Shown here: piece by piece, positions 26,726-43,061 of the stretch | Layout: each line of letters opens with the position of its first letter | How positions within the stretch are numbered: the stretch's first letter is position 1 | Origin: Tagaea sp. | Lineage (GTDB): Bacteria; Pseudomonadota; Alphaproteobacteria; CACIAM-22H2 | Assembly: GCA_965279525.1 (NCBI GenBank) | Contig: CBDIIB010000005.1 | Coordinates: 363,998 to 427,997 of the forward strand | Length of the DNA stretch: 64,000 nucleotides | Direction: 5' to 3' | The notes under the pieces: model-generated | What the model saw: only the letters and a program-made list of their open reading frames with translations | Told to the model about the DNA's origin: nothing | Database searches by the model: none | Made by a program: the position numbers and the translations under genes

Positions 26726-26726
26726 G

Positions 26727-27869
26727 TCAGTACGACCTCGGAAGATCCAGAACGTGCTCGGCAAGATAGGCGAGGATCAGGTTCGTCGAGATCGGGGCGA
26801 CCTGATAGAGCCTGGTCTCGCGGAACTTGCGCTCGACGTCGTATTCCTCGGCGAAGCCGAAGCCGCCATGCGTCTGCAGGCACGCCTCGGCGGCCTTCCA
26901 CGACGCGTCGGCCGCCAGCATCTTGGCCATGTTGGCCTGCGGCCCGCACGCCTCGCCCGCCTCGTAGAGATCGAGCGCTTCGCGCACCATCAAGGCTGCC
27001 GCCTGCCCTTCGGCATAGGCGCGCGCGATCGGGAACTGGATGCCCTGGTTCTGGCCGATGGGCCGGCCGAACACGACGCGCTCGCGCGCGTAGTTGCTGG
27101 CCTTCTCGACGAACCAGTTGAGGTCGCCCACGCATTCGGCCGCGATCAGGATGCGCTCGGCATTCATGCCGTCGAGGATGTAGCGGAAGCCCCGCCCCTC
27201 CTCGCCGATGCGGTTTTCCGCCGGCACTTCCAGATCGTCGAAGAACACTTCGGTCGTCGCGTGGTTCATCATCGCGCGCAGCGGCTTGATCGTCAGGCCC
27301 TTGGCCTCGCGCATGTCGACGACGAACACCGAGAGGCCGTCGGTCTTCTTCGCGGTCTTGTCCTTGGGCGTCGTGCGCGCGAGCAGCAGCATCAGGTCGG
27401 AATGTTCGGCGCGGCTCGTCCACACCTTCTGGCCGTTGATCACATATTTGTCGCCGCGACGTTCGGCGGTCGTGCGGATCGCGGTCGTGTCGGTACCGGC
27501 ACTTGGCTCGGTCACGCCGAAGGCCTGCAGGCGCAGATCGCCCGCCGCGATGCCGGGCAGGAAACGCTGTTTCTGTTCGGGGCTGCCGTGGCGCAGGATC
27601 GTGCCCATCGTGTACATCTGCGCGTGGCACGCCCCGCCATTGCAGCCCGACGCGTGGATCTCCTCGAGGATCGCGGCGGCCGCCGAAAGCCCCAGCCCCG
27701 ACCCGCCATATTCCTCGGGGATCAGCACGGCAAGCATGCCCGCCTTCGTCAGTTCGTCGACGAACGCCTTGGGATAGGCGCGTTCGCGGTCCAGTGCGCG
27801 CCAGTATTCGCCCGGATATTTCGCGCAGAGCGCCTTGACCGATTCGCGGATCTCCGGGTGGCTCGCCAT
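26727..27869 (-). CDS. Acyl-CoA dehydrogenase family protein
   Basis: 380 aa from MASHPEIRESV with GVTEPSAGTD and C-terminal ACAD signature. Upstream ORF start is an alternative-codon extension. Confidence 0.8.
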   Translation of the reverse strand: MASHPEIRESVKALCAKYPGEYWRALDRERAYPKAFVDELTKAGMLAVLIPEEYGGSGLGLSAAAAILEEIHASGCNGGACHAQMYTMGTILRHGSPEQKQRFLPGIAAGDLRLQAFGVTEPSAGTDTTAIRTTAERRGDKYVINGQKVWTSRAEHSDLMLLLARTTPKDKTAKKTDGLSVFVVDMREAKGLTIKPLRAMMNHATTEVFFDDLEVPAENRIGEEGRGFRYILDGMNAERILIAAECVGDLNWFVEKASNYARERVVFGRPIGQNQGIQFPIARAYAEGQAAALMVREALDLYEAGEACGPQANMAKMLAADASWKAAEACLQTHGGFGFAEEYDVERKFRETRLYQVAPISTNLILAYLAEHVLDLPRSY

Positions 27870-27873
27870 GGCG

Positions 27874-28875
27874 CTAGCCCGCCCGTTTGCGCAGGTCGGC
27901 AAGCAGGTCGGCCGGCACCTTGATGCCGCCGGCGGCGGACGCGGCCCGCAGCTTCAGCCGCCGCTCGCCGGGCAGGCGCGTGCCGGATTGCGCGAGGATG
28001 GCGCCCAGCAGCACCTCCAGCCGCGTGGCGAACGCAGGGCCGGCGAAACGCTGGGGATCGATCAGCAGGAAGAACTGGCCCACGCGCGGCGGCCCGCCCT
28101 TGGCGTCGAAGAACGAGCTGGCTTCGTAGCCGAAATTCGATGCGGTGAGTGCGGCCGCGAGGATCTCGACCATCAGCACCAGCGCCGCCCCCTTGGCGTC
28201 GCCCAGCGGGAGCATCGTGCCGGCCATCGCCTTCTTGGGATCGGTCGTCGGATTGCCGTCGGGATCGAGCGCCCAGCCTTCGGGGATCGTCTCGCCTTTC
28301 TGGGCGGCCACCATGATCTTGCCGCGCGCGACCTTCGACAGCGACAGGTCGACGACGAGTGGCGCCTTGCCCGCGCGCGGAGCCGCGAACGCGATGGGGT
28401 TGGTGCCGAACAGTGCCTTCGACCCGCCCCACGGGGCGATGGCCGACGGCGAGTTGCCGAACAGGAGGGCGACCAGCCCTGCCTTCGCCGCCGCCTCGAC
28501 GTGATAGCCGGCCGCCCCGAAATGATGCGAGTTGCCGATCCCGACGCCCACGACACCGGCCGTCTTCGCCATGTCGATGCCCTTCGCGATGCCGGCGGCG
28601 ATGGCCGGATAGGCGAACCCGTCCTTCGCGTCGACGAACAGCGCGCCGGGCGCGTTGACGCGCAGCTCGGGCACGGCCGTACCCGCGACCTTGCCGGCCT
28701 TGGCCTGGTCGGCATAGGCGGCGACACGGCTCAGACCGTGGCTGGCGAGCCCGTCGGCTTCCGCCGCGACGAGCGCGTCGGCGACGGCGCCCGCGTTGGC
28801 GGGTACCGTACCGGCGGCGACAAGTGCCTTCAGCACCAGCGCATGCGCGTCGGCCAGCGAAATGGTCTCGCTCAT
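27874..28875 (-). CDS. Ldh2-family oxidoreductase (malate/L-lactate/sulfolactate dehydrogenase family, ComC-like)
   Basis: 333 aa from MSETISLADAHALVLKAL. Ldh_2 core (GNSHHFGAAGYH). ATGA overlap with the upstream 2-HADH stop. Confidence 0.75.
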   Translation of the reverse strand: MSETISLADAHALVLKALVAAGTVPANAGAVADALVAAEADGLASHGLSRVAAYADQAKAGKVAGTAVPELRVNAPGALFVDAKDGFAYPAIAAGIAKGIDMAKTAGVVGVGIGNSHHFGAAGYHVEAAAKAGLVALLFGNSPSAIAPWGGSKALFGTNPIAFAAPRAGKAPLVVDLSLSKVARGKIMVAAQKGETIPEGWALDPDGNPTTDPKKAMAGTMLPLGDAKGAALVLMVEILAAALTASNFGYEASSFFDAKGGPPRVGQFFLLIDPQRFAGPAFATRLEVLLGAILAQSGTRLPGERRLKLRAASAAGGIKVPADLLADLRKRAG

Positions 28876-29822
28876 TTCGACCCCTTGATGCCGAGATTCG
28901 CCAACGCACTGCGCACGTTGGCGACCGTCACGCTGGAAACGCGCACGTTGCCCTCGGCGGTCACGCCGGCGATGTGCGGCGTCAGCCACAGGCGCGGAGC
29001 ACCTTCGAGCACCGAGCCCGCCTTCAGCGGCTCCTTGTCGAAGACGTCGATCGCGGCGCCGCCGAGCGTGCCGGCCTTCAGGGCGGCGGCCAGAGCGGCC
29101 TCGTCGATGATGCCGCCGCGCGACGTGTTGATCAGGATGGCGGACTTCTTCATCTTCGCGAGGCGCGCCGCGTCGATCAGGTTGCGCGTCTGCGGCGTCA
29201 AGGGCACATGCAGCGAGATCACGTCGGACGTGGCGCAAAGCTCCTCGACCGTGGCGATGCGTGTCACGCCGTACTGCTTCCACGCCGGATCGTCCGGCTT
29301 CAGCATCGGGTCGTAGGCCGCAAGATCCATTTCCAGCGCCTTCGCGCGCGTCGCGACCGCGCGCGCGATCCCGCCGAAGCCCACGAAGCCGAGGCGCTTG
29401 CCCATCGCCTCGCCCAGCATCAGGTCGTTGCGCGGCCACTTGCCGGCGAGCACGTCGGCATTGGCCTTCCAAACGTCGCGAAGGCACACGAGCGTTGCCG
29501 CGATCACGTATTCGGCGACCGAAACGGTGTTGGCCCCCGTCGCCGGGAAGACCTGGATGCCGCGCTTCGCGCATTCGTCCATGTCGATATTGTCGAGCCC
29601 GACGCCCAGCCGGCCGATCACCTTCAGGTTCTTCATCGCGGCAAGCACGGGGCCGCGGACCTGCGTGAGGTTGCGCACGATGATCGCCGGGCTTTCCGCG
29701 GCAAGCTTCGCGAGTTCCTCGGGCTTCGACACGAGGGTGCGGTCGTAATGGACCTTGTAATCCTTCGCCAGATCGTCGACCGCCCACTGGTCGACGAATT
29801 CGCTCACGACGATGTCGTACAT
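28872..29822 (-). CDS. D-isomer-specific 2-hydroxyacid dehydrogenase (NAD-binding)
   Basis: 316 aa from MYDIVVSEF. Rossmann GFVGFGGIARAV. Catalytic RGGIIDE and PH motif. Confidence 0.8.
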   Translation of the reverse strand: MYDIVVSEFVDQWAVDDLAKDYKVHYDRTLVSKPEELAKLAAESPAIIVRNLTQVRGPVLAAMKNLKVIGRLGVGLDNIDMDECAKRGIQVFPATGANTVSVAEYVIAATLVCLRDVWKANADVLAGKWPRNDLMLGEAMGKRLGFVGFGGIARAVATRAKALEMDLAAYDPMLKPDDPAWKQYGVTRIATVEELCATSDVISLHVPLTPQTRNLIDAARLAKMKKSAILINTSRGGIIDEAALAAALKAGTLGGAAIDVFDKEPLKAGSVLEGAPRLWLTPHIAGVTAEGNVRVSSVTVANVRSALANLGIKGSK

Positions 29823-29823
29823 T

Positions 29824-31437
29824 CTACATCTGCTCCATGTATTCGGCCGGATCGACGATTGCGTCGATGACCGTGAATTTGCGCGACGAAACGGCCGCCG
29901 CAAAGGCTTTTTCGAAGTCGGCCAGCGTTTCGACGCGCACGCCGACGGCCCCGCACGCCTGCCCGATCTGGTCGAAGCGCGGTCCCTTGAAGTCGACGGC
30001 ACGCGGTGCCATCTGCATCTTGGCTTGCTTGAGCTTGATCAGCGACAGCGCCCCGTCATTGAGCACGACGACGACGATCGGCAGGCCCAGTTCGGCCGCC
30101 AGCGGCAGCTCGCCCGCCGTCATCAGCATGCAGCCGTCGCCGACCAGCGCCACGACGGGCGCATCCGGACAGGCAAGCTGCGCGCCGATGGCCGCCGGCA
30201 CCGCATAGCCCATGCAGCACAGGCCGTTGGATTGCAGCAGCTGGCCGGACGACCGGCACTTGACCGAATGGTTGGCAAGGATGCGATGCGCGCCGACATC
30301 GACCGTCAGTTTCCAGTCGGGTGCCACGCGGTCCGACACGGCCTTGAACAGGCCGGCGGGCGAAATGCCCTTGGCCGGAGCGCGCGGCCGCACGATGTGC
30401 GCGACCGCATCGCGGCAGGCCTTGAGTGTCGCCGCGGGCCATGCACCCGCCCCTGGCTCGCCCGACGACGAAAGCTGGCCGAGCATCGCCGGCAGGTCGC
30501 CGTAGCATTCGGTGCCCAGCGGGAAAATGCGGTGGTTGAGCGGCCCCCAGTCGAGCGTGAGCACCGCGCGATCCTGCGGCCACGCATCAAGCCACGCATC
30601 GCGCAGCTCGATCGGATCGAAGCCGACGCACACGATCCGGTCCGCTTCGCGCACGATCTTCATGTTTTCGCCGTCCACGACCGGCGACAGGCCGACCGCG
30701 CCCAGGCACAGCGGATGGGCTTCGTCGATCACGCCCTTGGCCTTGTAGGTGGCGAAGAACGGCAGGCGCCAGGATTCGGCGAAACGGCGCAGCATGTCGG
30801 GCACGCCTTCATGCACCGCCCCGCGCCCGACCAGCAGCAGCGGGCGCTTGGCGCGCGCGATCGCGAGGCGAGCCGCAACCGCCGCATCGCCGGCAAGTGC
30901 GGTGCGCGCGACCGCGACCGGGCGGGCATCGAAATTCTCGGTCGATTCCGCACGGCCCAGATCGGCCGGGATATTCAGCATCACCGGGCCGGCCGGATAG
31001 GCCATCGCGATGTCGAGCGCGCGCGCCATCTGCTGGGCGGGGCGTGCCGCGTTGAGCGTGGCGGCATATTTGGTGACGGGTGTGGCCAGCGCCACATGGT
31101 CGAAGACCTGGTGGTTGTAGATCTGCGCGTTGGATGTGGCCATCTCGCCGGTCAGCACCGCAAGCGGCGAGCGCTCCATCAGTGCACCCGCGATGCCCGC
31201 CGTCGCGTTGGCGATGCCGGGGCCGAGTGCGGGGATCAGCACCTGCGGCCTGCCGGTGATCTGGCAAACCGCATCGGCCATGAACGCGGCAGCGGGTTCG
31301 GATTTCGCCAGCACGAAGCGGATGCCGGCTTCCTCGCACGCGCGCACGGTTTCCAGCACGTCGTTGCCGGGGATGCCGAACGCGAACGTGGCCCCCCAGT
31401 TGCGCAAGGTGGCGGCAAGCTTGTCGGCGACTTTCAA
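29824..31437 (-). CDS. Thiamine-diphosphate-dependent enzyme (acetolactate synthase large subunit / 2-ketoacid decarboxylase-lyase-like)
   Basis: 537 aa. TTG start with AGGAG SD gives MKVADKLAATLRNWGATFAFGIPG. C-terminal TPP-binding GDGCMLM...LNDGALS motif. Confidence 0.75.
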   Translation of the reverse strand: MKVADKLAATLRNWGATFAFGIPGNDVLETVRACEEAGIRFVLAKSEPAAAFMADAVCQITGRPQVLIPALGPGIANATAGIAGALMERSPLAVLTGEMATSNAQIYNHQVFDHVALATPVTKYAATLNAARPAQQMARALDIAMAYPAGPVMLNIPADLGRAESTENFDARPVAVARTALAGDAAVAARLAIARAKRPLLLVGRGAVHEGVPDMLRRFAESWRLPFFATYKAKGVIDEAHPLCLGAVGLSPVVDGENMKIVREADRIVCVGFDPIELRDAWLDAWPQDRAVLTLDWGPLNHRIFPLGTECYGDLPAMLGQLSSSGEPGAGAWPAATLKACRDAVAHIVRPRAPAKGISPAGLFKAVSDRVAPDWKLTVDVGAHRILANHSVKCRSSGQLLQSNGLCCMGYAVPAAIGAQLACPDAPVVALVGDGCMLMTAGELPLAAELGLPIVVVVLNDGALSLIKLKQAKMQMAPRAVDFKGPRFDQIGQACGAVGVRVETLADFEKAFAAAVSSRKFTVIDAIVDPAEYMEQM

Positions 31438-31447
31438 GGCAAGGCTC

Positions 31448-33172
31448 CTATTCGGCGGCCCGGTCGAGAAGGCTCTCGCCCGGCCGCACGCGGGTGAAGG
31501 CGACGGGTTCCATCGCCACGTCGAGCGTGTCGGCGCGTGTCCGCACCAGCGTATAGCGCGACGTCGGCAGGTCACCGGCTTCCGGGTGGTCGGCGCGGAA
31601 ATGGGCGCCGCGGCTGTCGGTGCGCGCGACGGCCGCCGCCCGGATCGATTTCGACACGGCGACGAGGTTCTTGAGGTTCAGCCAGTCATGCCAGGTGAGA
31701 TTGAAGGCGCGCGTCGTCTCGGCCACGCCGGCCTCGTCGAGAGCGGCATCGAGATCGTCGAGCACGCCGCCGGCACGCGCGAGGCTGGCTGCATCGCGCA
31801 CGATGCCGACATCTTCCCACATCGTGTCGGCAAGCTTCTCGCGGATCGGCTCGAGGTCGCGCGGCTTGCGCGCGAACGGGGCAAGTGCGCGCGCGGTCGC
31901 GGCCGCGATGGCCGTTTCGTCGGGTGCACGCAGTTCGCCGCGCGCGGCCACCCAGCGCGCCATGCTGTCGCCGGCCAGCCCGCCGAACACGGTCGAGTTC
32001 GCCACGCCGTTGCCGCCCAGCCGGTTGGCGCCATGCACGCCGCCGGTATCCTCGCCGGCCGCGAACAACCCGGTAAGATCCGTCGTGCAGTCGCCGCGGA
32101 ACGGCACGCCGCCCATCATGTAGTGGGCCGTCGGCACCACTTCGACGCGCCCGCCGGCAAGATCGAAGCCGCAATCGGCGCAGCGTTCGACCATGCCTTT
32201 GAAGCTCTTGCGCACCATGTCAGGTCCCAGATGGTGCATCTGCAGATAGACGCCGCCAAGTGCGGTGCCGCGGCCCTTGCGCACGATGTCGAACACCGCG
32301 CGGCTGACGACGTCGCGCGTCGCGCGTTCGCCCTGCGCGTCGTACTCCGCCATGAAACGCGTGCCGTCCTTGTCGAGCAGCCAGCCGCCCGCCCCGCGCA
32401 GGCCCTCTTCCAGCACCGTGCCGGTCATGCGCGTGTCAGGTCCGGCGAGCAGGCCGGTGGGGTGGAACTGAACCATCTCCATGTCGCGCAAGGGCAGGCC
32501 GGCGCGCAGCGCCATCGCCATGCCGTCGCACGCCTTGTCGCCCGACGGCGTGTGGTAGCGGTACATGGTCGGTCCGCCGCCGGTTGCCAGCAAGACGGCC
32601 TTGGCGCGCACGAACACGAATTCGCCGTCGCGCATGTCGATCATCAGCACGCCGGCGAGCGCCGAGCCGTCGGCCGTGCGCACGAGCTCGATCGCGCGAT
32701 GCTCTTCCAGCCGGTCGATGCCGCGCGCCCAGACCTGCTCGGCAAGGCGGTTGACGATCTCGATGCCGGTGAGGTCGCCCTTGTGGACGGTGCGGTCGAA
32801 GGTCTGCCCGGCGAACGCCTTCTGGTGGACCGTGCCGTCCGGGTTGCGGTCGAAGAAGCAGCCCAGCTCGTTCTCCAGCTCGCGGATGCGCACCTGCGCG
32901 ACCGTGACGAGCGTCCAGGCGAGATCCTGGTCGTTGAGCCACTTGCCGCCCTCGATCGTGTCCATGAAATGGCGTTCGGCGCTGTCGCCTTGGGCGAGCG
33001 CCACGTTGTAGCCGCCCTGCACCATGCGCGTGCAGCCGCACTTGCCGAGCAGGCCCTTGACCGCGATGGTGATCTTGAGCGCCGGGTCCGCCTTGTGCGC
33101 ATGCAGCGCCGCGAACAGGCCCGCCCCGCCTGCACCCAATATCAGAATGTCGGTATCGACCCGCCTCATGCC
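31448..33172 (-). CDS. FAD-dependent fumarate reductase / succinate dehydrogenase-flavoprotein family protein (FrdA/SdhA/NadB-like)
   Basis: 574 aa from MRRVDTDILILGAGGAGL. HPTG and HYMMGG motifs and C-terminal RGAHFRADHPE. Confidence 0.8.
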   Translation of the reverse strand, partial: GMRRVDTDILILGAGGAGLFAALHAHKADPALKITIAVKGLLGKCGCTRMVQGGYNVALAQGDSAERHFMDTIEGGKWLNDQDLAWTLVTVAQVRIRELENELGCFFDRNPDGTVHQKAFAGQTFDRTVHKGDLTGIEIVNRLAEQVWARGIDRLEEHRAIELVRTADGSALAGVLMIDMRDGEFVFVRAKAVLLATGGGPTMYRYHTPSGDKACDGMAMALRAGLPLRDMEMVQFHPTGLLAGPDTRMTGTVLEEGLRGAGGWLLDKDGTRFMAEYDAQGERATRDVVSRAVFDIVRKGRGTALGGVYLQMHHLGPDMVRKSFKGMVERCADCGFDLAGGRVEVVPTAHYMMGGVPFRGDCTTDLTGLFAAGEDTGGVHGANRLGGNGVANSTVFGGLAGDSMARWVAARGELRAPDETAIAAATARALAPFARKPRDLEPIREKLADTMWEDVGIVRDAASLARAGGVLDDLDAALDEAGVAETTRAFNLTWHDWLNLKNLVAVSKSIRAAAVARTDSRGAHFRADHPEAGDLPTSRYTLVRTRADTLDVAMEPVAFTRVRPGESLLDRAAE

Positions 33173-33777
33173 TTCACGCCGACGGCGGCGAGGGCTGCCG
33201 CACGCCGGTCCTGCGCCGTGGCGCGGACCTTGTCGTAGATCGAGCCGCCATGGCTGTCCATCGCCACCAGCAGAGGCCCGAAGCCCTTCACCTGGAAATG
33301 CCACAGGCTTTCGGGATTGAGATCGTCGAGATCGACGTCGACGATGCGCTCGATCCATGTCGTCTCGAGGGCTGCCGTGCCGCCGATGATCGCCAGATAC
33401 GCCCCGCCCAGCTCCGTGAACGCCGCTTGCGAGGCCTCGCGCAGGCCGCCCTTGCCGATAATCAGGCGCACGCCGTACTGCGCCATCAGCGGCTTCGAGA
33501 AGCGCTCCATGCGGTCGGACGTCGTCGTGCCCACGCAGACCGGCTGGTAGCCGACCGGGCACTCGTTCGACAGCGGCACCTTGCGCACGTTGGGGGCCGT
33601 GTGGATCACGGCATGGCCCTTCATGTCGAAGCGCGTCGTGCGGCCGCGGTCGAACATGTGGATCTGGGTGGCGTCGCGGATGCCGAACAGCGAGCCGGTC
33701 AGCGTGACGGTATCGCCGGTCCGCAGGCTTCGCACCTGCGCCTCGTCCACCGGCATGCGGAATTCGTGGTGGGCCAT
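33166..33777 (-). CDS. Fe-S hydro-lyase beta subunit (class I fumarase C-terminal / L(+)-tartrate dehydratase TtdB-like)
   Basis: 203 aa. Aligns to the FumA/TtdB C-terminal domain (GSLFGIRDATQIHMF...). Confidence 0.75.
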   Translation of the reverse strand: MAHHEFRMPVDEAQVRSLRTGDTVTLTGSLFGIRDATQIHMFDRGRTTRFDMKGHAVIHTAPNVRKVPLSNECPVGYQPVCVGTTTSDRMERFSKPLMAQYGVRLIIGKGGLREASQAAFTELGGAYLAIIGGTAALETTWIERIVDVDLDDLNPESLWHFQVKGFGPLLVAMDSHGGSIYDKVRATAQDRRAAALAAVGVKA

Positions 33778-33781
33778 GGCG

Positions 33782-34669
33782 TCAGAACCCGATCTCGACG
33801 CCGGTCGGCGTGAAGGTGGCGCTCGCGCGCCTTGCCGAGTGGCACTGGATGTTGACGGCCACCGGATTCATCGTGATGTGCGTGGCCGCCGTCTCGACAT
33901 GCACCGCGAAGGCCGTGCCATCGCCACCAAGCCCCTGCGGGCCGATACCCAGCGAGTTGACCGCCCCCGACAGCAGCCTTTCGAGCTTGGCACCTTCTTC
34001 ATCGTCGCACACGCTGCCGAGTGCGCGCGTCGCCGCGACCTTGGCGAGATGCATGCACAGGTCGGAGGTGCCACCGATCCCCACGCCCACGATGGTCGGC
34101 GGGCAGACCTTGCCGCCGGCTTCCATCACGCGATCGATGACGAAGGTCTTGATGCCGTCGATCCCGTCGGCCGGGATCAGCATCTTCAGGAACGAGCCGT
34201 TCTCCGACCCCGATCCCTTCGGGATCATCTCGATGCGCAAGGTGCGCGGGGCGTCGATGAAATCGATGTTGATGACCGGCACGCGGATGCCCGATGAGGT
34301 GTGCTCGTTCTTGCGCGTGATCGGATGCACGACCGACGAGCGCAGCGGGTATTCCTTCGTCGCGCGCGCCGTGCCGCGCCGGATCGCTTCCTTCAGCGCG
34401 ATGCCGTCCACGTCCACGTCGCGGCCGATCTCGATGTTGAAGATCGGGATGCCGGTGTCCTGGCACAAGAGGTTGTCGGTCTTTTCGGCCACCGCGATGT
34501 TCTCGATCATCGTGGCGAGGATCGTGCGGGCCGTGCCGTCGGTCTCGGCGGCGTCCAGCCGCGTGAAGCCGCGCTTGATGTCGTCGGGCAGCAGCTTCAG
34601 CGCACGTATATAGAGGAGCTTCGCCGCCTCCTCGACCGCCGCGATGTCGATATGGAGCTTTGCGCTCAC
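33782..34669 (-). CDS. Fe-S hydro-lyase alpha subunit (class I fumarase N-terminal / TtdA-like). GTG start.
   Basis: 295 aa from (V→M)SAKLHIDIAAVEE with GGAGG SD. Cys ligands in CQDTG and GIGG. GTGA overlap with the enolase-superfamily stop. Confidence 0.75.
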   Translation of the reverse strand: MSAKLHIDIAAVEEAAKLLYIRALKLLPDDIKRGFTRLDAAETDGTARTILATMIENIAVAEKTDNLLCQDTGIPIFNIEIGRDVDVDGIALKEAIRRGTARATKEYPLRSSVVHPITRKNEHTSSGIRVPVINIDFIDAPRTLRIEMIPKGSGSENGSFLKMLIPADGIDGIKTFVIDRVMEAGGKVCPPTIVGVGIGGTSDLCMHLAKVAATRALGSVCDDEEGAKLERLLSGAVNSLGIGPQGLGGDGTAFAVHVETAATHITMNPVAVNIQCHSARRASATFTPTGVEIGF

Positions 34670-35784
34670 GACGCCTCCGCGTATCGCTTCAGGAGATCGG
34701 GGTCGGGATCGTAGCCGAGGCCGGGCCGGTCGGGCAGGTGCAGGCGCCCGGCGCGGATGTGCGGGAAATCGTCGAACACCGAATCGCGCAGCGGATTGTC
34801 CTGTGCGTCGACCTCCAGCCGCCCGTCGCCGCCGACTGCCGCCAGCAGGTGCGCGCTTGCCAGCAGGCCCACACCGCCGCCCAGATAATGCGGGCAGAAC
34901 ATGAAGCCGGCCTCGCGCACGGCACGCCCCAGCGGCACGCAAGCCGAGAAGCCGCCCCACTTGGCGATGTCGGGCTGCAACACGCCGAACGCGTTGGACG
35001 CGATGGCTTCGCGGAACTGCGCGGCCCCACGCATGTTCTCGCCGCCCGCGATGGGAGCGGCACTGAGGCCCGCGACAAGCTGCCATTCGCCTTCGGGGGC
35101 ATCGACCGCCAGCGGCTCCTCGATCCAGCCGAGATTGAAGGGTGCGAACTCGCGCACGCGGCGTGCGGCGGTCTCGGCGTCCCACGCCTGGTTGGCGTCG
35201 ACCACGATGAACGCCTTGGGCCCGAGGGCGGCACGAAGGCCCGCGATGTTCTTCAAGTCCGCCTCGGGTGCGAAGCCGACCTTGAGCTTGAAGCCGTCGT
35301 AGCTCTGCGCGAGGCGCACCAGCGCCTGCTCGACCGCACCGTCCGGACCGAGGCCGGAGGCATAGACCGCGACGTCGCTGCGCGCCCCGCCCAGATGCTT
35401 CCACAGCGGCAGGCCGGCGCGGCGCGCGCTCAGGTCCCACAGCGCCTGGTCGATGCCGGCCAGCACCTGCGCGAAGGTGCCGGGCTCGCCGCACTGGAGC
35501 GACAGGATGCGCGTCTTGCCTTCGAGGATATCGAAGGCCGCGCGCGGGTCCTCGAACGTCGCACCTTTGAGCAGCGGCGCGAAGATATCGTCGAACAGCC
35601 GGCGGCGGGCGGCACCGGCCCCGGGCGGGAAGTTGCACCAGATCTCGCCCCAACCGACGGCGCCGTCGGAATCCTCTAGACGAACGAGCAGCATCGTGCG
35701 CGCGCGCATGGCGCCGAACGCGGTGCGGATCGGCGTTGCGAGCGGATAGAGATGTAGCAGTGCCTGTGCGCGCGCGATTTTCAT
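34666..35784 (-). CDS. Enolase-superfamily (mandelate racemase / muconate lactonizing enzyme family) dehydratase/racemase
   Basis: 372 aa from MKIARAQALLHLYPLATPIRTAFG. KVG...DANQAW...EEP metal-ligand pattern. Confidence 0.75.
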   Translation of the reverse strand: MKIARAQALLHLYPLATPIRTAFGAMRARTMLLVRLEDSDGAVGWGEIWCNFPPGAGAARRRLFDDIFAPLLKGATFEDPRAAFDILEGKTRILSLQCGEPGTFAQVLAGIDQALWDLSARRAGLPLWKHLGGARSDVAVYASGLGPDGAVEQALVRLAQSYDGFKLKVGFAPEADLKNIAGLRAALGPKAFIVVDANQAWDAETAARRVREFAPFNLGWIEEPLAVDAPEGEWQLVAGLSAAPIAGGENMRGAAQFREAIASNAFGVLQPDIAKWGGFSACVPLGRAVREAGFMFCPHYLGGGVGLLASAHLLAAVGGDGRLEVDAQDNPLRDSVFDDFPHIRAGRLHLPDRPGLGYDPDPDLLKRYAEAS

Positions 35785-35786
35785 GG

Positions 35787-36671
35787 CTAGCGCTGCATGC
35801 CCCAGCGGCGGACCGTGCGCGCCTCGACGGCGCGGAAGATCACGCCCTCGACGAACAGGCCGATGACGATGACGGTCAGCAATCCGGCAAACACGTTTGC
35901 GGTCTCCAGCAGGTTGCGGTTCTCGAAGATGTACCAGCCCAGCCCGCCCGAACGTGCCGAGACGCCGAACACCAGCTCGGCCGCGATCAGCGTTCGCCAG
36001 GCGAACGCCCAGCCGATCTTGAGGCCGGCCAGGATCGACGGGAACGCCGCCGGGATCAGGATCTTCATCACGAAGCGCACGCCGCGCAGCCCGTAGTTGG
36101 TGCCCGCCATGCGCAGCGTCTCGGAGACCGACTTGAAACCGGTATGCGTGTTGAGCGCCACCGCCCACAGGACCGAATGCACGATGACGAACACCAGCGA
36201 CGGGATGCCGAGGCCGAACCACAGCAGGGCGAGCGGCAGCAACGCGATCGCCGGCAGCGGATTGAACATCGCGGTCAGCGTGGAAAGCAGGTCGTTGCCG
36301 AAGCGCGTGGAAACGGCAAGCGTCGTGAACACGGCCGCCAGTGCGAGCCCCGAGCCGTAGCCCACGAACAGCACCTGCAGTGTCGTGGCCATGCGCCCGA
36401 GCAGCGGGCCGGTTACGAACGCGTCGTAGAAGGCCTGCGCCACCTCGTGGAAGGGCGGGAACATCAGCGGATTGCCGAGCCAGCGCCCGTAGAGCTCCCA
36501 GGCACCCGCCAGCGCCAGGACGATGACGAGACGCCGGATCCAGGTCTGGTTCCAGATGCGCTCGAAGGCGGAAAGCGGCCGCTCGACCTCGCCGAACTGG
36601 GCAGCCCCCACTTCGCGGACCTCGAATTCGGCGCGGACCGGCGGCGTGATGCGTGCGGCGGCGTCAACCAT
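35787..36671 (-). CDS. ABC transporter permease (NitT/TauT family)
   Basis: 294 aa, multi-TM, EAA-like loop. Adjacent to a matching ATPase and substrate-binding protein. Confidence 0.8.
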   Translation of the reverse strand: MVDAAARITPPVRAEFEVREVGAAQFGEVERPLSAFERIWNQTWIRRLVIVLALAGAWELYGRWLGNPLMFPPFHEVAQAFYDAFVTGPLLGRMATTLQVLFVGYGSGLALAAVFTTLAVSTRFGNDLLSTLTAMFNPLPAIALLPLALLWFGLGIPSLVFVIVHSVLWAVALNTHTGFKSVSETLRMAGTNYGLRGVRFVMKILIPAAFPSILAGLKIGWAFAWRTLIAAELVFGVSARSGGLGWYIFENRNLLETANVFAGLLTVIVIGLFVEGVIFRAVEARTVRRWGMQR

Positions 36672-37479
36672 GGGCGTCCGCCTTCTCCTGCTCGATGCGT
36701 TCGGCGAACAGCATGTCGTGGATGCGCCGCTGCAGGGCCTGGAACTCGACCCCGCCCTGTGCCGTGTGGTCGAACTGGTGGCAGTTGAGCTCGGCCTTCA
36801 CGCGGCCGGGATGCGGCGACAGCACGAGGATGCGGCTGCCCACAACGATGGCTTCCTCGATCGAGTGCGTGACGAACAGCACGGTGAAGCGCACGTCGTC
36901 CCACAGCTCGAGGAGTTCTTCCTGCATCTTGCGCCGCGTCAGCGCATCGAGGGCCGCGTAGGGTTCGTCCATCAGCAGGATGTCGGGTTCCATCGCCATC
37001 GCGCGCGCGATGGCCACGCGCTGCTTCATGCCGCCCGACAGCATGTGCGGGTAGACGTCGATGAACTTGGTCAGGTTCACCTTCTCGATGAAGTGGCGCG
37101 CACGCGCCGCCGCCTCGGTCTTGTTCCACTTGCCCGCGCACAGCATCGGGAACATGACGTTCTCGAGCACGGTCTTCCACGGCAGCAGCTGGTCGAATTC
37201 CTGGAAGACCATCATGCGGTCAGGACCCGGCCGGTCGATCGTGCGCCCGTTGAGCGCCATGGTGCCTTCGACCGGCGTCATGAAGCCGGCCACGCCCTTC
37301 AGCAGCGTCGACTTCCCGCAGCCCGATGGCCCCAGCAGCACGAACCGGTCGCCGCGCTGCACCTCGAAACTGACGCGGTACGTCGCGGTGACCAGATGTT
37401 CGGCCGTCTTGTACTGGAGCGTCACCCCGTCGACCTTCAGGATCGGCGGGGTGACGCCGGAGGCGTCTGCCATCGTCAA
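36664..37479 (-). CDS. ABC transporter ATP-binding protein (NitT/TauT family)
   Basis: Walker A GPSGCGKST, signature LSGGMKQRVAIARA, Walker B ILLMDEP. 271 aa. Confidence 0.85.
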   Translation of the reverse strand: MTMADASGVTPPILKVDGVTLQYKTAEHLVTATYRVSFEVQRGDRFVLLGPSGCGKSTLLKGVAGFMTPVEGTMALNGRTIDRPGPDRMMVFQEFDQLLPWKTVLENVMFPMLCAGKWNKTEAAARARHFIEKVNLTKFIDVYPHMLSGGMKQRVAIARAMAMEPDILLMDEPYAALDALTRRKMQEELLELWDDVRFTVLFVTHSIEEAIVVGSRILVLSPHPGRVKAELNCHQFDHTAQGGVEFQALQRRIHDMLFAERIEQEKADAHG

Positions 37480-37489
37480 GCCGCTCCGC

Positions 37490-38509
37490 CTAGGATCCCT
37501 GCACGCCGTGCAGGCCGGGGAAGAACATCTCCTTCCAGTCGGCCGGCTTTTCCTTGACCGTGCCGGTGCGCTGCATGAACTCGGCGTACTTCATCGTGTT
37601 CTTCGGCACGACGGTGAACTCGTGCTGCGGATCGTTGAGGAGCGACATCACGAATTCCTTCGGCGGCGCTCCCTTCTCGACGCGCATGTAGATGTCGGCC
37701 GCGCGGTTCTTGTCGTTCGTGATGATGGCCTGCGCCTCGACGAGCGCATCCTGGAACGCCTTGTAGACGCGCGGGTTCTGCGTGCGGACCTTGTCGGTCG
37801 TCCAGACGAAGTTGAACGAGCACGGGCCGCCCAGCACCTCGTAGTTCGACAGCACGCGCTTCACCTTGGCGTCCTGGAGCTGCAGGTTCTGGAAGGGCGG
37901 CGAGCCGAAATGCGCCGTGATCTCGCTCTTGCCCGACATCATCGCGTTCATCGCGTCGGGGTGCGACATCGAGACGGTGATGTTGTCGAGCCTGTCGTGC
38001 TTGCCGGCACCGAAGGCCTTCTCGCAGGCCATCTGGAGCGTGATGGCCTGGATGGAGACGCGCACGGCCGGCAGGCCGATGCGGTCCTTGTCGGTGAAGT
38101 CGGCGATGGTCTTGACGGCGGGATTGACGGTGTTGAGGTAGAGCGGAAGCGAATTGAGCGAGGCCACGCCCTTGACGTTGAGCGAGCCCTTGGTGCGCGC
38201 CCACAGCACGATCATCGGCCCCACGCCGCCACCGGCGAATTCGAGATTGCCCGAGATCAGCGCGTCGTTGATGGGGGCACCGCCCGCGAACTGGAGCCAG
38301 TTCGTCTTGACGTTGGGAAGGCCCGCGGCAGCCGCGTGCTTCTCGATCAGCTTCAGGTCTTCCATGATCATCAGCGGCAGGTAGGAGATGCCGAACTGCT
38401 TGGCGATGCGCACTTCGCCGATCTCCTGCGCGTGCGCGATCCCGGGGGCGGCGAGCACGGCGGCGGCGCCGGCGACGAAGGCGCGGCGGGTCGGACGGAT
38501 ATCGGACAT
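37490..38509 (-). CDS. ABC transporter substrate-binding protein, NitT/TauT (SsuA/TauA-like aliphatic sulfonate/nitrate) family, Tat signal
   Basis: 339 aa from MSDIRPTRRAFVAGAAAVLAAPGIAHAQ. Periplasmic SsuA/TauA-like fold. Confidence 0.75.
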   Translation of the reverse strand: MSDIRPTRRAFVAGAAAVLAAPGIAHAQEIGEVRIAKQFGISYLPLMIMEDLKLIEKHAAAAGLPNVKTNWLQFAGGAPINDALISGNLEFAGGGVGPMIVLWARTKGSLNVKGVASLNSLPLYLNTVNPAVKTIADFTDKDRIGLPAVRVSIQAITLQMACEKAFGAGKHDRLDNITVSMSHPDAMNAMMSGKSEITAHFGSPPFQNLQLQDAKVKRVLSNYEVLGGPCSFNFVWTTDKVRTQNPRVYKAFQDALVEAQAIITNDKNRAADIYMRVEKGAPPKEFVMSLLNDPQHEFTVVPKNTMKYAEFMQRTGTVKEKPADWKEMFFPGLHGVQGS

Positions 38510-38588
38510 TCGGGTTTCCTCCCATTCTGTTGCGGCGGCGAAGTTCGCGGACGGTTCTGCCCTTGTCGAACAAGATTTTCTAACACGG

Positions 38589-39317
38589 TCAGGCAACGAG
38601 AACGACTCCCGAAGCCAGCAGCAATCCCAAGACGATACGCCGGAACGTCGCGTCGTCGACGCGCGCATAGAGCCGGAGGCCGATCCACACGCCCAGCGCC
38701 ACGGCCGGCAGGCACCACAGGAAATCCGAAACCGCCTGCGGGCCGATCCCGCCGTCGAAATAAAGATAGACGAGCGCCACGGCCTGCATGACGAAGATGT
38801 AAGGCTGGTAGACGCCGCGCTGCTCGTTTTTCGACCAGCCGCGCAGGCCGGTCCACGGCGTGGGGATCGCCCCCGACAGGCCGCCGAGCCCGCCCAGCAC
38901 CCCGCCGACGAAGCCGACCGCCCCGTCGAGCGGTGCCCCGCCGAAACGGATCGGCCGCGGCACCCCGCGCGCCAGCATGTAGATGGCATAGACGACGAGG
39001 AAGACGCCGATCGCGCGCTTCAGCGGCTCGGGCGACACGCTCTGCAGCAGCAGCACGCCGAGCGGGATGCCGATCACGCCACCGATCAGGAACGGGGCGA
39101 GCCGACGCCAGTCGATCGCGTCGCGCACGCCGAGAATCGAGAAGGTCTGCGCCAGCAGGCTCGCCGCCAGCACCAGGGGGGTGGCATCAACCGGCAGGCG
39201 CAGATGCAGATAGACCGCCGACGCGATCAGCGCGAAGGCGAACCCCGCCAGCCCCGACGCGATGGCCGCCACGAAAGACGCGAGCATCAGCCAGACTTCG
39301 CTCGGCACTTCGTTCAT
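38589..39317 (-). CDS. TauE/SafE family sulfite exporter (DUF81)
   Basis: 242 aa, 7-8 TM segments with Gly-rich repeats (GGVIGIPLGVLLL / GGVLGGLGGLSGAIP). Start overlaps the SdhC-like stop. Confidence 0.75.
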   Translation of the reverse strand: MNEVPSEVWLMLASFVAAIASGLAGFAFALIASAVYLHLRLPVDATPLVLAASLLAQTFSILGVRDAIDWRRLAPFLIGGVIGIPLGVLLLQSVSPEPLKRAIGVFLVVYAIYMLARGVPRPIRFGGAPLDGAVGFVGGVLGGLGGLSGAIPTPWTGLRGWSKNEQRGVYQPYIFVMQAVALVYLYFDGGIGPQAVSDFLWCLPAVALGVWIGLRLYARVDDATFRRIVLGLLLASGVVLVA

Positions 39318-39676
39318 GCCGCCATCACGTTGAACGCGAACAGCAACCCCGCCGCGATCGCGAAACCGGCACTGGCGGCGACGGCCGTCTTCTGCCGGTC
39401 GCTCCACGGCAGGAACTCGACCGCCAGCAGACGCACGCCGCCGGCCATGTGCGCGGCGAGCAGCACGACGAGACCGGTCTCGGCGAACTTGACCAATGCG
39501 TTGTCGGTCCAGCGCAGCATGCCGTCCAGTGCGGCCTCGCCGCCGATGGCCGTACCCAGCGCCCAGAAATGCAGCGGCACGAAAAGCGTCAGCGCCAGCC
39601 CGGACAACCGGTGCACGGCAAACGCCCACCACGCGGGGTGCTTGCGGTGCCGAAAAGAGGGGGGCGGCCGGTTCAT
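39314..39676 (-). CDS. Succinate dehydrogenase / fumarate reductase cytochrome b subunit-like membrane anchor (SdhC-like)
   Basis: 120 aa, 3 TM, His-containing HRLSGLAL motif. Confidence 0.6.
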   Translation of the reverse strand: MNRPPPSFRHRKHPAWWAFAVHRLSGLALTLFVPLHFWALGTAIGGEAALDGMLRWTDNALVKFAETGLVVLLAAHMAGGVRLLAVEFLPWSDRQKTAVAASAGFAIAAGLLFAFNVMAA

Positions 39677-40017
39677 GCGAACAGGCCGGCGACCGCGCGC
39701 CAGCCGAACCAGACGAGGAATGCCGCGAACGTGGCGGTCGCCAGATCAAGCGCCGGGCCGCGCCAGCCGAACGTCTCGCGCAGGATGGCGCGCAGGCCGA
39801 CGGGGGCATGGACCGCGACCGCGAGAACGAACAGGCCGTAGAACAACGCCAGGCCGAACGAACCGCGCGTGCGCGACAGGATCTCGGCGGCCGTCAGCCC
39901 GCCGCGCACCGCATAGAGGATCGTGGCCAGATGCACGAGCACGCACACGGCGAGCACGGCGGCACTGGCGCGTTGCGCCCCCCACAGCAGCGTTTCGGCG
40001 CGCGCGCGAAATCTCAT
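39673..40017 (-). CDS. Succinate dehydrogenase hydrophobic membrane anchor-like subunit (SdhD-like)
   Basis: 114 aa from MRFRARAETLLWGAQRASAAVLAVCVLVHL, 3 TM, overlaps neighbours by 4 nt. Confidence 0.55.
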   Translation of the reverse strand: MRFRARAETLLWGAQRASAAVLAVCVLVHLATILYAVRGGLTAAEILSRTRGSFGLALFYGLFVLAVAVHAPVGLRAILRETFGWRGPALDLATATFAAFLVWFGWRAVAGLFA

Positions 40018-40727
40018 GCCCCGCCCTTCCATGCCGCGCGCAGCGTGGCGCGCTTCAGCCCCGCGATCGACGCGGTGGGGTTGAGCGATTTGGGGCAGTG
40101 CTCGCGGCACGACTGGTGCGAATGGCAGGCATGGCAGCCCGCGTCGCCGGCGACCGCGTCGAGACGCTCGGCGTTGCCGGCATCGCGCACGTCGTTGACC
40201 AGCGTCCACGCGCGGTTGAGGGCGGCGGGCCCGAGATACTCGGCGTTCCACGCCACGAGATCGCAGGCCGAATAGCACACCGCACAGCCGATGCACTCGA
40301 TGCCCGCGTCGGCGGCTTTTCGTTCGGCACTTGCCGGCTCGACCACCGCGAAATCCGCACCGGCGTCGGCCGAGGGCACGAACCTTCCGCCGGCCTTCGC
40401 CCATTTGTCGAAGAACGGCGCCATGTCGGCGGCGAGATCCTTGATGCGCGGCAGGTTGCGCAGCGGCTCGACCGTCAGCGGGCCGCCTTCCAGACGCGAC
40501 ACGTGCGTGCGGCAGGTCCAGCGAGGCTTGCCGTTTACCGTCATCGCGCACGAGCCGCACATGCCCACGCGGCACGCGAATCGGTACGAGAGCGTCGGGT
40601 CGAGCTTGCGCTGGATATATGTGACCACGTCGAGCACGGTCTGGCTCGCGCGGCGCGGAACGGAAAAGGTCTCGAACCTTCCGTCCGCGCCGCCGCGCCA
40701 GATCCGCGCGTCGATCGTGTCGGCCAC
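40014..40727 (-). CDS. Succinate dehydrogenase / fumarate reductase iron-sulfur subunit-like (SdhB/FrdB-like)
   Basis: 237 aa. 2Fe-2S CRVGMCGSCAM. 4Fe-4S CIGCAVCYSAC and CHACHSHQSCREHCP. Confidence 0.8.
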   Translation of the reverse strand: MADTIDARIWRGGADGRFETFSVPRRASQTVLDVVTYIQRKLDPTLSYRFACRVGMCGSCAMTVNGKPRWTCRTHVSRLEGGPLTVEPLRNLPRIKDLAADMAPFFDKWAKAGGRFVPSADAGADFAVVEPASAERKAADAGIECIGCAVCYSACDLVAWNAEYLGPAALNRAWTLVNDVRDAGNAERLDAVAGDAGCHACHSHQSCREHCPKSLNPTASIAGLKRATLRAAWKGGA

Positions 40728-40734
40728 GAAGGGC

Positions 40735-41943
40735 CTAGGCGCTCTGGTAGAGCTTCGTCATCACGAATTCGCGATGCCCGAGGGCCTCGGCGCAGGTGTA
40801 GCGGCCGTTGCACACGCGGATCATCACGTCGATCAGACGGTCGCCCGCCTCATCGAGATCCATCTCGCGGCGCAGGATGCCGGAGACGTCGAGATCGATA
40901 TGCTCGGGCATCTCGCGCGCGGTCTTCGGGTTCGCCGTGAGCTTGATGACCGGCTCGATCGGGTTGCCGATGACGTTGCCCTGCCCCGTCGGGAACAGGT
41001 GCACGACGAAACCGGCGGCCGCCTGCAGGGTCACGCATTCGGCCGCGGCCGACGACGTGTCCATGAAGTAGAGACCTGCCCCCTTCTTGGGCATCTCGGC
41101 GGGGGCGAGCACGTCCACGTACTTCGTCTTGTGGCCGATCTTCTGGAAATTGCCGAAGGCCTTTTCCTCGATCGTCGTCAGGCCGCCCGCGATGTTGCCC
41201 TTGGTCGGCTGGGATTCCGACAGGTCGCTCGTCTTGAAGCGGTTGATCATGTCCTGGTAGGCGTTGAAGATCGTCATGAACTTGTCGGCGGTCTTCTTGT
41301 CGACCGCGCGCTTGACCATCTCCTTCTCGGCCCCGGTCAGCTCCGAGGTCTCGCCAAAGCACGTGGTGGCACCCAGCGGATCGACCTTGTCGATGAGGTT
41401 GCCGACCGTCGGGCACGAGGCGAGGCCCGACGTGGTGTCGGACTCGCCGCACTTGGTCGAGACCCACAGCTCCTCGATCGTGCACTGCTCGCGCTGCTTC
41501 TCGGTCGCCCACATGACGAACTGCTGCGCCACGCGGCTGGCGGCCTCGATCGTGCGCAGGTCGCCGTTGCCTTCGATGGCGAAGCCCTGCACGGGCTTGC
41601 CGGTCTTGGCGATGCCTTCGACCACGCGGCCCGTCCAGCCCGGCTCGATGCCGATGACGACGACGGCCGCGACGTTGGCGTTGCAGCCGGTGCCGATCAG
41701 CGTGCGGAAGTGGAGTGCGAGATCCTCGCCGAACTGCAGGCGCCCGTAGGCGTGCGGCAGCGCCATCGTGCCCTTGATGTTGTTGGCGACGGCTTCGGCC
41801 GCCGCGTTCGACAGGTCGTCGAGCGGCAGGATGATGACGTGGTTGCGGATGCCGACACGCCCGTTTTCGCGGCGATAGCCCATGAAGGGCAGCTTGCCGG
41901 TGTTCTTCGAGCGCTTCTTGATGATCGCGGGGGCCTTGGCCAT
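40735..41943 (-). CDS. UxaA-family dehydratase large subunit (altronate hydrolase C-terminal domain. SuyB-like (2R)-sulfolactate sulfo-lyase beta).
   Basis: 402 aa, UxaA C-terminal catalytic domain only. Paired with a separate SAF-domain small subunit upstream, as in SuyAB. Confidence 0.65.
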
Positions 41944-41956
41944 GTCGATCTCTCCC

Positions 41957-42241
41957 TTACCAGCGCTTGGTTTTCATGTTGTGGATATGGACGTGGTCGC
42001 CCTTCTTGGTATCCGCGACGACCTTGCCGATGTCGTGCCCGTACTTGATCACGGTGTCGCCCTTCTTGAGGTCGACCATCGCGATCTTGTGGCCGAGCGG
42101 AATGGCCTTGAGCGCCTTCACGCGCACGGTCCCGTCGCCTTCCATGAGCCAGCCTTCGAGGGCGGCACCCGGCTTGACGGTTTCGACGACGATGACACCG
42201 ACGGTGTCCTTCTTGTCGTGGACGATGAATTGGGTCGCCAT
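41957..42241 (-). CDS. SAF-domain small subunit (UxaA N-terminal domain. SuyA-like sulfo-lyase alpha).
   Basis: 94 aa [30 protein letters not shown]... SAF/flagellar-FlgA-like fold immediately upstream of the UxaA large subunit. Confidence 0.65.
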
Positions 42242-42315
42242 TTCCCCCTCGCGGTTTTTATGGGTTGTCGGATGGTCGCGAACGCTACGCCCGGCTTGCG
42301 CGACCCGTCAACCGG

Positions 42316-42329
42316 GTCTTATATAAGAC
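42316..42329. promoter_or_regulatory. Perfect 14-bp palindrome GTCTTATATAAGAC (GntR-type operator consensus GT-N10-AC) 9 nt upstream of the gntR ATG
   Basis: Read directly. Lies in the 96-nt divergent intergenic region between the SuyA-like gene and the gntR gene. Confidence 0.7.
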
Positions 42330-42337
42330 TCGAGATC

Positions 42338-43051
42338 ATGGAAACGCGCCCGCTCTACCGCCAGATCAAGGAAGCGCTGATGCGCCGTCTCGTCGACGGG
42401 CGCTGGCGTGCGGGCGAGCTGATCCCGTCCGAGCATGCGCTCGCATCCGAGCTTGGCGTGAGCCAGGGCACGGTGCGCCGGTCGCTCGACGAGCTGGCCC
42501 GCGCCAACCTCGTCGTGCGCCGGCAGGGCAAGGGCACGTTCGTGGCCGAGCACACGCGCGAGCGCGCCCTGTTCCACTTCTTCCATCTGGTCGGCGACGA
42601 CGGCAAGCGGGCTTTGCCCGGCAGCCGCGTGCTGGCCGTCAAGGCGGGGCCGGCCTCGCGCGAGGAAGCGCGCCGGCTCGAACTTGCCGCCGGCGCGAAA
42701 GTGGTGCGGCTCCATCGCCTGCGCATGCTCGACGGGCGTGCCGCGATCGTCGAGCGCATCGTGCTGCCGGCCACCCTTTATGACGGGATCGAACGGCTCG
42801 ACCGCGCGGGCCTGCCCAACGAGCTCTACAAGCTCTACCAGGACCGCTACGGCGTGTCGGTCGCGCGCGCGGCCGAAAAACTGAAGGCCGCCCCGGCGGG
42901 GCCGGAAGATGCCGCACATCTGGGCCTGCGCAGCGGGGCGGCCGTGCTGGAGATCGACCGGATCGCCTACGCGCTCGACGGCAGGCCCTGCGAATGGCGG
43001 GTATCCCGCTGCGATACGGCCGCCCACCACTACGTTTCCGAAGTGGTCTAG
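42338..43051 (+). CDS. GntR-family transcriptional regulator (HutC/UTRA subfamily)
   Basis: 237 aa. Winged HTH (LIPSEHALASELGVSQGTVRRSLDELA) and UTRA effector domain. Transcribed divergently from the 19-gene operon. Confidence 0.85.
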   Translation: METRPLYRQIKEALMRRLVDGRWRAGELIPSEHALASELGVSQGTVRRSLDELARANLVVRRQGKGTFVAEHTRERALFHFFHLVGDDGKRALPGSRVLAVKAGPASREEARRLELAAGAKVVRLHRLRMLDGRAAIVERIVLPATLYDGIERLDRAGLPNELYKLYQDRYGVSVARAAEKLKAAPAGPEDAAHLGLRSGAAVLEIDRIAYALDGRPCEWRVSRCDTAAHHYVSEVV

Positions 43052-43061
43052 AATCCCGGCC

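Follow-up and report, generated by a model that had tools for sequence, protein, structure and literature searches.

A conserved AT-rich palindrome as the probable operator of an SdhR-like HutC-subfamily regulator divergent from suyAB-like genes in a Tagaea genome

SdhR, which we take to be a beta-proteobacterial regulator of the TCA cycle, is the closest described relative of the system discussed here. The regulon that Suvorova, Ravcheev and Gelfand assigned to it reportedly consists of the housekeeping sdhCDAB genes and icd, and we know of no binding, footprint, transcription start or expression data for this regulator. A full-text literature search for the 12-bp core described below returned one paper, Suvorova, Korostelev and Gelfand 2015 (PMC4494728). 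That paper lists the SdhR motif TCTTATGTCTTATATAAGACATAAGA, assigned to a HutC-subfamily GntR regulator, as an exception to the canonical HutC-subfamily consensus NyGTMTAKACNy, in which GT and AC stand 4 nt apart, and it quotes the motif as a comparative-genomics prediction from Suvorova, Ravcheev and Gelfand (2012, J Bacteriol 194:3234). Its supplements contain no SdhR sites, and a literature search on SuyR and on GntR regulators associated with suyAB or sdhCDAB found no experimental study of this type of regulator. The other useful point of reference is NagR, for which the contacts to DNA have been described: in the operator GTGGTCT/AGACCAC, Arg38 reads G-5, Arg48 reads G-4 and Gly69 of the wing contacts G-7 (PMC4333415).

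The DNA considered here, called the window throughout, is a 64-kb stretch from a Tagaea genome with a G+C content of 68%. Its intergenic region at 42242-42337, 96 nt in length, is bordered by the ATG of a minus-strand gene for a 94-aa protein (42241 down to 42239) and by the ATG of gntR at 42338. An earlier sequence-only reading had singled out a perfect 14-bp palindrome in this region, and the dyad GTCTTATATAAGAC is indeed present at 42316..42329, with no strand assigned, between the flanks CAACCGG and TCGAGAT. The 14-mer is identical to the exact centre of the published 26-mer TCTTATGTCTTATATAAGACATAAGA. The distances given with it need slight adjustment. The palindrome was placed 9 nt from the gntR ATG and is found 8 nt from it (42330-42337), and the spacing of about 75 nt to the first gene of the divergent operon holds roughly, with 74 nt as the exact distance to the start codon. 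Even with three mismatches allowed, GTCTTATATAAGAC occurs nowhere else in the 64-kb window (0.10 expected), and in a scan of the window with a weight matrix derived from orthologous sites the palindrome scored 29.2 versus 2.5 for the runner-up position. Palindromy itself was rejected as a statistical argument for the site, as perfect palindromes of 14 bp or more occur 20 times in the window versus 16.4 expected from first-order Markov simulations. GTCTTATATAAGAC is the sole AT-rich member of the 20, the other 19 being GC-rich, and base composition predicts about 9e-6 occurrences of this very word per window. The non-randomness of the palindrome therefore lies in its AT-rich wording and its conservation across species, and not in its dyad symmetry.

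The gene that starts beside the palindrome, gntR (42338..43051, plus strand), encodes a 237-aa protein with an N-terminal GntR winged helix-turn-helix (PF00392, residues 6-69, E 5.7e-21) and a C-terminal UTRA effector domain of the chorismate-lyase fold (PF07702, residues 94-229, E 2.6e-31). This pairing of domains places the regulator in the HutC subfamily, in agreement with the sequence-only reading. The same reading had fitted the palindrome to the HutC consensus GT-N-TA-N-AC (GTMTAKAC), and here it went astray: GT and AC stand 10 nt apart in the palindrome, around a central 8 bp of TTATATAA, and the HutC consensus GTNTANAC was rejected as a description of the site, being absent from 42242-42337. 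SdhR is listed as an exception in PMC4494728. The outer G/C pair of the 14-mer, the source of the "GT...AC" reading, is only moderately conserved (G 56%, A 33%), the invariant stretch being TCTTATATAAGA. The palindrome does resemble the canonical operators of HutC, PhnF, TreR and others in being a dyad with an AT-rich centre that lies in a divergent region beside the regulator gene. It differs from them in the 10-nt spacing of GT and AC where the canonical sites have 4, and the regulator of the window scores below the cut-off of both the HutC and the PhnF equivalog model.

Comparison with the nearest solved structures suggests how such a site might be read. These structures are NagR (YvoA) from Bacillus subtilis and DasR from Streptomyces (PDB 4WWC, 2WV0 and 4ZS8; E about 1e-20), which share the fold of a winged helix plus UTRA with the window protein. 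The NagR operator is likewise a 14-bp dyad with a G at -7 read by the wing glycine, while its core is GTGGTCTAGACCAC as opposed to GTCTTATATAAGAC in the window. In a gap-free HMMER alignment, Arg38, Arg48 and Gly69 of NagR correspond to His33, Gln43 and Gly64 of the window regulator. Gln43 is invariant in the aligned proteins that carry the motif, and the residue aligned with His33 varies without being Arg in any of them. The half-site in the window reads G-7 T-6 C-5 T-4 T-3 A-2 T-1, and replacement of the two arginines with retention of the wing glycine fits C-5/T-4 in place of G-5/G-4 with G-7 kept. Protein and site would thus fit a single dimer on each 14-bp dyad that reads the bases in an altered way. 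If so, replacing both guanine-reading arginines would represent a route within the HutC family to AT-rich specificity.

The connection to SdhR was made through DNA and not through a protein search. A word-indexed homologue search with the regulator returned close relatives only and did not reach SdhR, so the link was drawn from a plasmid collection and a motif scan of metagenomes. Scanning metagenomes for the exact 26-mer TCTTATGTCTTATATAAGACATAAGA gave 62 loci, and in 45 of them it adjoins a gntR homologue, either sdh-linked or suyAB-linked. About 40 loci carry the 26-mer 5' of a gntR homologue that is 38-44% identical to the window protein and is followed by sdhA/sdhB; in three, it is flanked by suyAB-like genes on one side and on the other by a gntR homologue that is closer to the window protein (48-59% identical). 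The other 17 (L082, L086, L100, L125 and 13 more) have no gntR nearby and share one arrangement of flanking ORFs, which the six loci checked with Pfam identify as a divergon of isocitrate dehydrogenase and pseudouridine synthase. The presence of the motif in this divergon points to a multi-operon TCA-cycle regulon for the sdh-linked regulators. In Burkholderia cenocepacia, the identical 14-mer lies 5' of the sdh-linked gntR, that is, upstream of the regulator's own transcription unit, as it does in the window.

The proteins tell the same story of a shared DNA-binding half. Suy-linked and sdh-linked regulators align with a common recognition helix, VSQGTVR(K/R), and a common wing, RRQGKGTFVA, and the helix-turn-helix domains of the two groups are 58-67% identical, the regulator of Burkholderia cenocepacia being one of the sdh-linked examples. 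Between their UTRA domains, identity falls to 28-33%, as compared with 41-57% inside the suy-linked group. The regulator is the sole gene that the sdh-linked and suy-linked contexts have in common. On the basis of a GntR plus UTRA architecture and a DNA-binding domain in common with sdh-linked regulators whose genes have the motif 5' of them, the window regulator belongs to an SdhR-like clade; it does not qualify as an SdhR orthologue, given its divergent UTRA domain and a conserved neighbour that is suyAB-like, a sulfo-lyase/UxaA-family pair found with the clade in alpha- and gammaproteobacteria, instead of housekeeping sdhCDAB and other TCA-cycle genes such as icd. The window regulator thus appears to be a sister of SdhR with the same DNA specificity and with a different effector domain and different targets. 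The site in the window also departs from the 26-bp SdhR motif in that the outer half-sites TCTTAT/ATAAGA, set at a 7-bp step, are absent from it. They are present in many relatives (e.g., L012, L015-L019 and L029-L041), and affinity or stoichiometry may therefore differ at the window site. The motif had been offered as a concrete one for regulon searches; it is not a new one, as the SdhR-type motif is already in print.

Conservation among relatives shows which part of the palindrome matters. We scanned one genome per species and collected 80 loci that encode relatives of the regulator, the best being a metagenome-assembled genome of Tagaea sp., a member of the Rhodospirillaceae, with a regulator 95% identical to that of the window. 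In 58 of the 80, gntR is divergent from suyA/suyB-like genes, and the regulators there are 46-95% identical to the window protein. These 58 orthologous gntR/suyA intergenic regions come from alpha- and gammaproteobacteria, and 52 of them contain the core TCTTATATAAGA with at most two mismatches (36 exactly), while the rest of these loci, 330,510 nt in all, yields 4 matches. Site and regulator thus stay together in a shared intergenic region, as in an autoregulated divergon. Each position of the core carries 1.3-1.9 bits of information, and the flank consensus of the orthologous sites contains weak half-sites at a 7-bp step. We conclude from this pattern that the 12-bp core, at 42317..42328 in the window with no strand assigned, is the stretch under selection. 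The motif tracks suyA and not gntR when the gene order changes. Where gntR and then suyA follow each other on one strand (L058, L060 and L062), the motif lies in the gap between them, just 5' of suyA. A plasmid of Methylobacterium oryzae has two copies in the interval from TauE to the UxaA-family genes, with gntR as the last gene of the operon. On pTAV3 of Paracoccus versutus, sites are found in a transporter divergon and 5' of gntR, at a locus that also has Ldh-family, hydroxyacid-dehydrogenase and HpsN-like genes. Taken together, the core in 52 of 58 regions and its tracking of suyA lend good comparative support to the earlier proposal that the palindrome is an operator of the adjacent regulator. 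As a separate observation, the suyA/gntR divergons of Lysobacterales (L052 and L054-L057) do not have the consensus core and contain a more degenerate version, CTCTTGTAGAACACATAATACA, instead, with the recognition helix unchanged; CTCTTGTAGAACACATAATACA may be a diverged or asymmetric operator.

The same intergenic regions indicate where the suyA promoter might lie. A generic sigma-70 and terminator scan gave nothing useful in the intergenic region, and the promoter proposal rests on phylogenetic conservation. In an alignment of 17 intergenic regions, few positions are invariant beyond the start codon and Shine-Dalgarno region. The most prominent are two blocks, GTCAA (42307-42311) and A.G.TA (42282-42287; columns A47, G49, T51 and A52), the second of which corresponds to T1, A2, C4 and T6 of a -10 hexamer. 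On the minus strand, these blocks are contained in a putative -35 hexamer TTGACG (42306..42311), 4 nt from the 14-mer, and a putative -10 hexamer TAGCGT (42282..42287), 18 nt downstream of it. The latter matches just 8 of 12 positions, which explains why the generic scan missed it. From this conservation we infer that TTGACG-N18-TAGCGT is the suyA promoter, with a predicted start near 42275 and the dyad centre near -47. A Shine-Dalgarno-like GAGGGGG (42244..42250, minus strand) precedes the SuyA-like start in a block that close relatives conserve. A sigma-54 promoter was considered for GGC...TTGCGC and rejected by eye, as the sequence lacks a GG/GC pair with the spacing that such a promoter needs. 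For gntR, a leaderless mRNA with its -10 inside the palindrome was considered; in relatives, AGGA stands 3-4 nt before the gntR ATG, which argues for a short leader. The region also contains a GC-rich inverted repeat, GGTCGCGAACGC / GCTTGCGCGACC (42274-42285 / 42294-42305), which is 83% complementary with an 8-nt loop and brackets the putative suyA -10. Relatives retain the potential for such a repeat with other bases, e.g., GGACGC...GCGTCC in L003, and it could be the site of a second regulator or a structure in a longer leader.

Of the 52 core-bearing loci, 45 have TTGAC at one of a few sharply quantised distances from the core, which define two geometries. In 30 loci, the window among this class, TTGAC is at +17 or at +24 to +26, so that the operator or an extra half-site abuts the -35. 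In the other 15, it is at -22/-23, which puts the core over the suyA -10, a classical repressor geometry. The geometry of the window class, with the site 5' of the -35, fits occlusion of the -35 and upstream region and is also compatible with activation. Across the loci, the spacing of the -35 from the operator array therefore seems to be held to one register, with a 7-bp step corresponding to one extra half-site.

In our view, the adjacent HutC-subfamily, SdhR-like regulator probably has its operator in the palindrome and is probably an effector-released repressor acting on both gntR and suyA. A dimer would bind the 14-bp dyad with one winged-helix domain per half-site. With 8 nt between the dyad and the gntR ATG, the promoter or start of gntR would have to overlap the operator, and the bound regulator would cover it, giving negative autoregulation; the predicted gntR start falls inside 42320-42336 or just 3' of it. 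Autoregulation of gntR had been proposed before, and the placement of the site supports it. On the other side, where the dyad ends 4 nt upstream of the suyA -35, the bound dimer would most likely block RNA polymerase at the -35 and upstream region. A small effector on the UTRA domain would then displace the DNA-binding domains, the mechanism expected from NagR and DasR (PMC4333415), and both units would be derepressed. NagR and DasR respond to amino-sugar phosphates; for the window regulator, the probable ligand would be sulfolactate, or else a C3/C4 sulfonate or hydroxy acid that is related to it and processed by the operon. A sulfonate effector had been suggested before, and the content of the operon (TauE, the Ldh-family/ComC-like gene and a sulfonate-type ABC transporter) makes it plausible. 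What the comparisons show is a site that exists, is conserved, accompanies this regulator clade and lies 5' of suyA; that the protein binds there, whether it represses, where the promoters lie, which effector it has and that all 19 genes are co-transcribed are inferred from sequence.

The sign of regulation at suyA is where this reading has its most serious competitor, namely the same regulator at the same site acting as an activator or dual regulator at suyA, with repression limited to gntR. With its centre at about -47, the dyad lies just 5' of the -35, a usual place for activators that touch RNA polymerase. In the window and 30 related loci, the conserved TTGAC is preceded at 5 nt by the end of the core or of its extra half-site, and promoters that depend on an activator typically have a -10 as weak as the predicted TAGCGT. 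A centre near -47 is, however, off the usual activator face at -41.5 or -61.5, and the 15 related loci with the motif over the suyA -10 fit repression only. Furthermore, NagR and DasR, the closest characterised HutC-family members and the closest solved relatives, are repressors (PMC4333415). We therefore regard activation at suyA as rather unlikely.

Two further explanations would leave the adjacent regulator out of the matter. The AT-rich block might be nothing but a promoter element, -10 or UP-like, for one or both divergent promoters, with an incidental dyad. It does contain two hexamers similar to a -10, TATATA and TATAAG, nothing else in the intergenic region is AT-rich, and perfect palindromes of such length are common in the window. 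A promoter element would hardly account for a full 12-bp dyad that is conserved in alpha-, beta- and gammaproteobacteria at variable distance and on both sides of TTGAC, extra half-sites at 7-bp steps would be unexpected, and the co-occurrence of the motif with one regulator clade in the unrelated contexts of sdh, icd and suyAB also speaks against it. This explanation is hardly credible. Only a little more credit, still placing it among the very improbable, is due to a different, unlinked factor of the same specificity, such as a second SdhR-type paralogue, that binds the palindrome while the adjacent GntR protein recognises another site. Sdh-linked and suy-linked regulators seem to share the motif, making cross-talk possible in genomes with both, and our analysis covers 64 kb of the host genome. 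On the other hand, the motif adjoins a member of the clade in 52 of the 58 suy-type loci and in 45 of the 62 loci with the 26-mer, and the 96-nt region offers no other conserved dyad except the weaker GC-rich inverted repeat over the putative -10.

The genes placed under the proposed repressor form a run of 19 co-directional, tightly packed genes on the minus strand, from 42241 to 24747, and the count given in the sequence-only reading is correct. Strand and frame were fixed by codon-position G+C analysis. The first gene (41957..42241) encodes the 94-aa small subunit of a split UxaA-family, SuyA-like enzyme; it has a weak match to the N-terminus of galactarate dehydratase, and PGAP names its Methylobacterium homologue "UxaA family hydrolase". 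The second (40735..41943) encodes the 402-aa SuyB-like large subunit (Pfam GD_AH_second, 2e-85, and GD_AH_C, 2.5e-32), which is 65-99% identical in related loci and always adjoins the small subunit. The labels SuyA-like and SuyB-like rest on domains, split architecture and gene context: both subunits and their domains are present, and the same clusters contain TauE, an Ldh-family gene and a hydroxyacid dehydrogenase. The other 17 genes (24747..40727), assigned by Pfam and NCBIfam matches, encode in order an SdhB-like Fe-S subunit, two Sdh_cyt subunits and the sulfite exporter TauE (genes 3-6); an NMT1-type binding protein, an ABC ATPase and a permease (genes 7-9); an enolase-superfamily dehydratase and the alpha and beta subunits of a class-I fumarase/tartrate-dehydratase-like enzyme (genes 10-12); an Sdh/Frd/TfrA-like flavoprotein, with TfrA as its best NCBIfam match, a TPP enzyme and a D-2-hydroxyacid dehydrogenase (genes 13-15); and an Ldh-family (ComC-like) dehydrogenase, an acyl-CoA dehydrogenase, a family III CoA-transferase and a MaoC-like dehydratase (genes 16-19). 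The best NCBIfam match of the Ldh-family gene is L-sulfolactate dehydrogenase, at 209 bits versus a cut-off of 500.

Intergenic gaps in the run are at most 79 nt, and a terminator scan predicted no intergenic minus-strand terminator within it, a layout that suggests co-transcription of all 19 genes. Control of the divergent operon by the palindrome had also been called probable; a conserved site upstream of suyA supports the claim at the head of the operon, and its extension to all 19 genes is a structural argument. Whether one site would control all 19 is uncertain, since the operon content 3' of suyAB varies among relatives. The sdh-like genes of the operon are about 31-37% identical to those of the sdh-linked loci and are missing from several relatives.

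The cluster is unusual in what it combines. A sulfolactate module (SuyAB-like proteins, TauE, the Ldh-family/ComC-like and D-2-hydroxyacid dehydrogenases and the sulfonate-type ABC transporter) is joined to a complete paralogous Sdh/Frd complex, the two-subunit class-I fumarase/tartrate-dehydratase-like enzyme, the enolase-superfamily dehydratase and the TPP enzyme, as well as to a set of CoA-transferase III, acyl-CoA dehydrogenase and MaoC. In Paracoccus wurundjeri, a fumarate/tartrate-type cluster with a TauE homologue has been described as induced on a sulfosugar (bioRxiv). The 19-gene cluster may encode an undescribed C4-sulfonate route. Its content is a more interesting question than the operator itself.

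For the regulator, these comparisons lead us to a tentative proposal, which we put forward as a possibility with less in its favour than against it. The SdhR-type winged helix and the TCTTATATAAGA operator would have been kept while effector domain and targets were exchanged, turning a sister clade of SdhR into a dedicated switch for the catabolism of sulfolactate or organosulfonates in alpha- and gammaproteobacteria and, in this Tagaea-like genome, placing it over a 19-gene, possibly C4-sulfonate operon. If this is true, the operon would join SuyAB and TauE to an Sdh/Tfr-like quinone oxidoreductase, a fumarase/tartrate-dehydratase-like enzyme and a set of CoA-transferase, acyl-CoA dehydrogenase and hydratase, and the undescribed C4-sulfonate route could be of the sulfosuccinate or sulfomalate type. 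One operator type would then serve regulators with different effector domains, for TCA-cycle genes in one case and sulfonate catabolism in the other. The motif has already been published as a prediction, and here it goes with a sister clade of regulators found beside suyAB-like sulfonate genes; current concepts are unchanged. In practical terms, the comparison provides a predicted, well-supported pair of cis-element and regulator for sulfolactate-type sulfonate operons in many uncultured alpha- and gammaproteobacteria, and the right probe for regulon searches is the 12-bp core and not the 14-mer or the HutC consensus. Given an effector, the pair could become a sulfonate-responsive switch.

Some minor features lie on the gntR side of the divergon. 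An ORF at 42909-44195 (plus strand), with its true start probably near 43060, follows directly 3' of gntR and may be co-transcribed with it. It has no Pfam match, and homologues 58-97% identical are present in all Tagaea-group loci. By eye, it contains LFDIVGFS...GDGFYVW, reminiscent of the catalytic domains of class III nucleotidyl cyclases. A 15-nt direct repeat, AGATCATGGAAACGC / AGATCAAGGAAGCGC, at 42333-42347 and 42363-42377, covers the gntR start and codons 9-13 and is probably a chance match.
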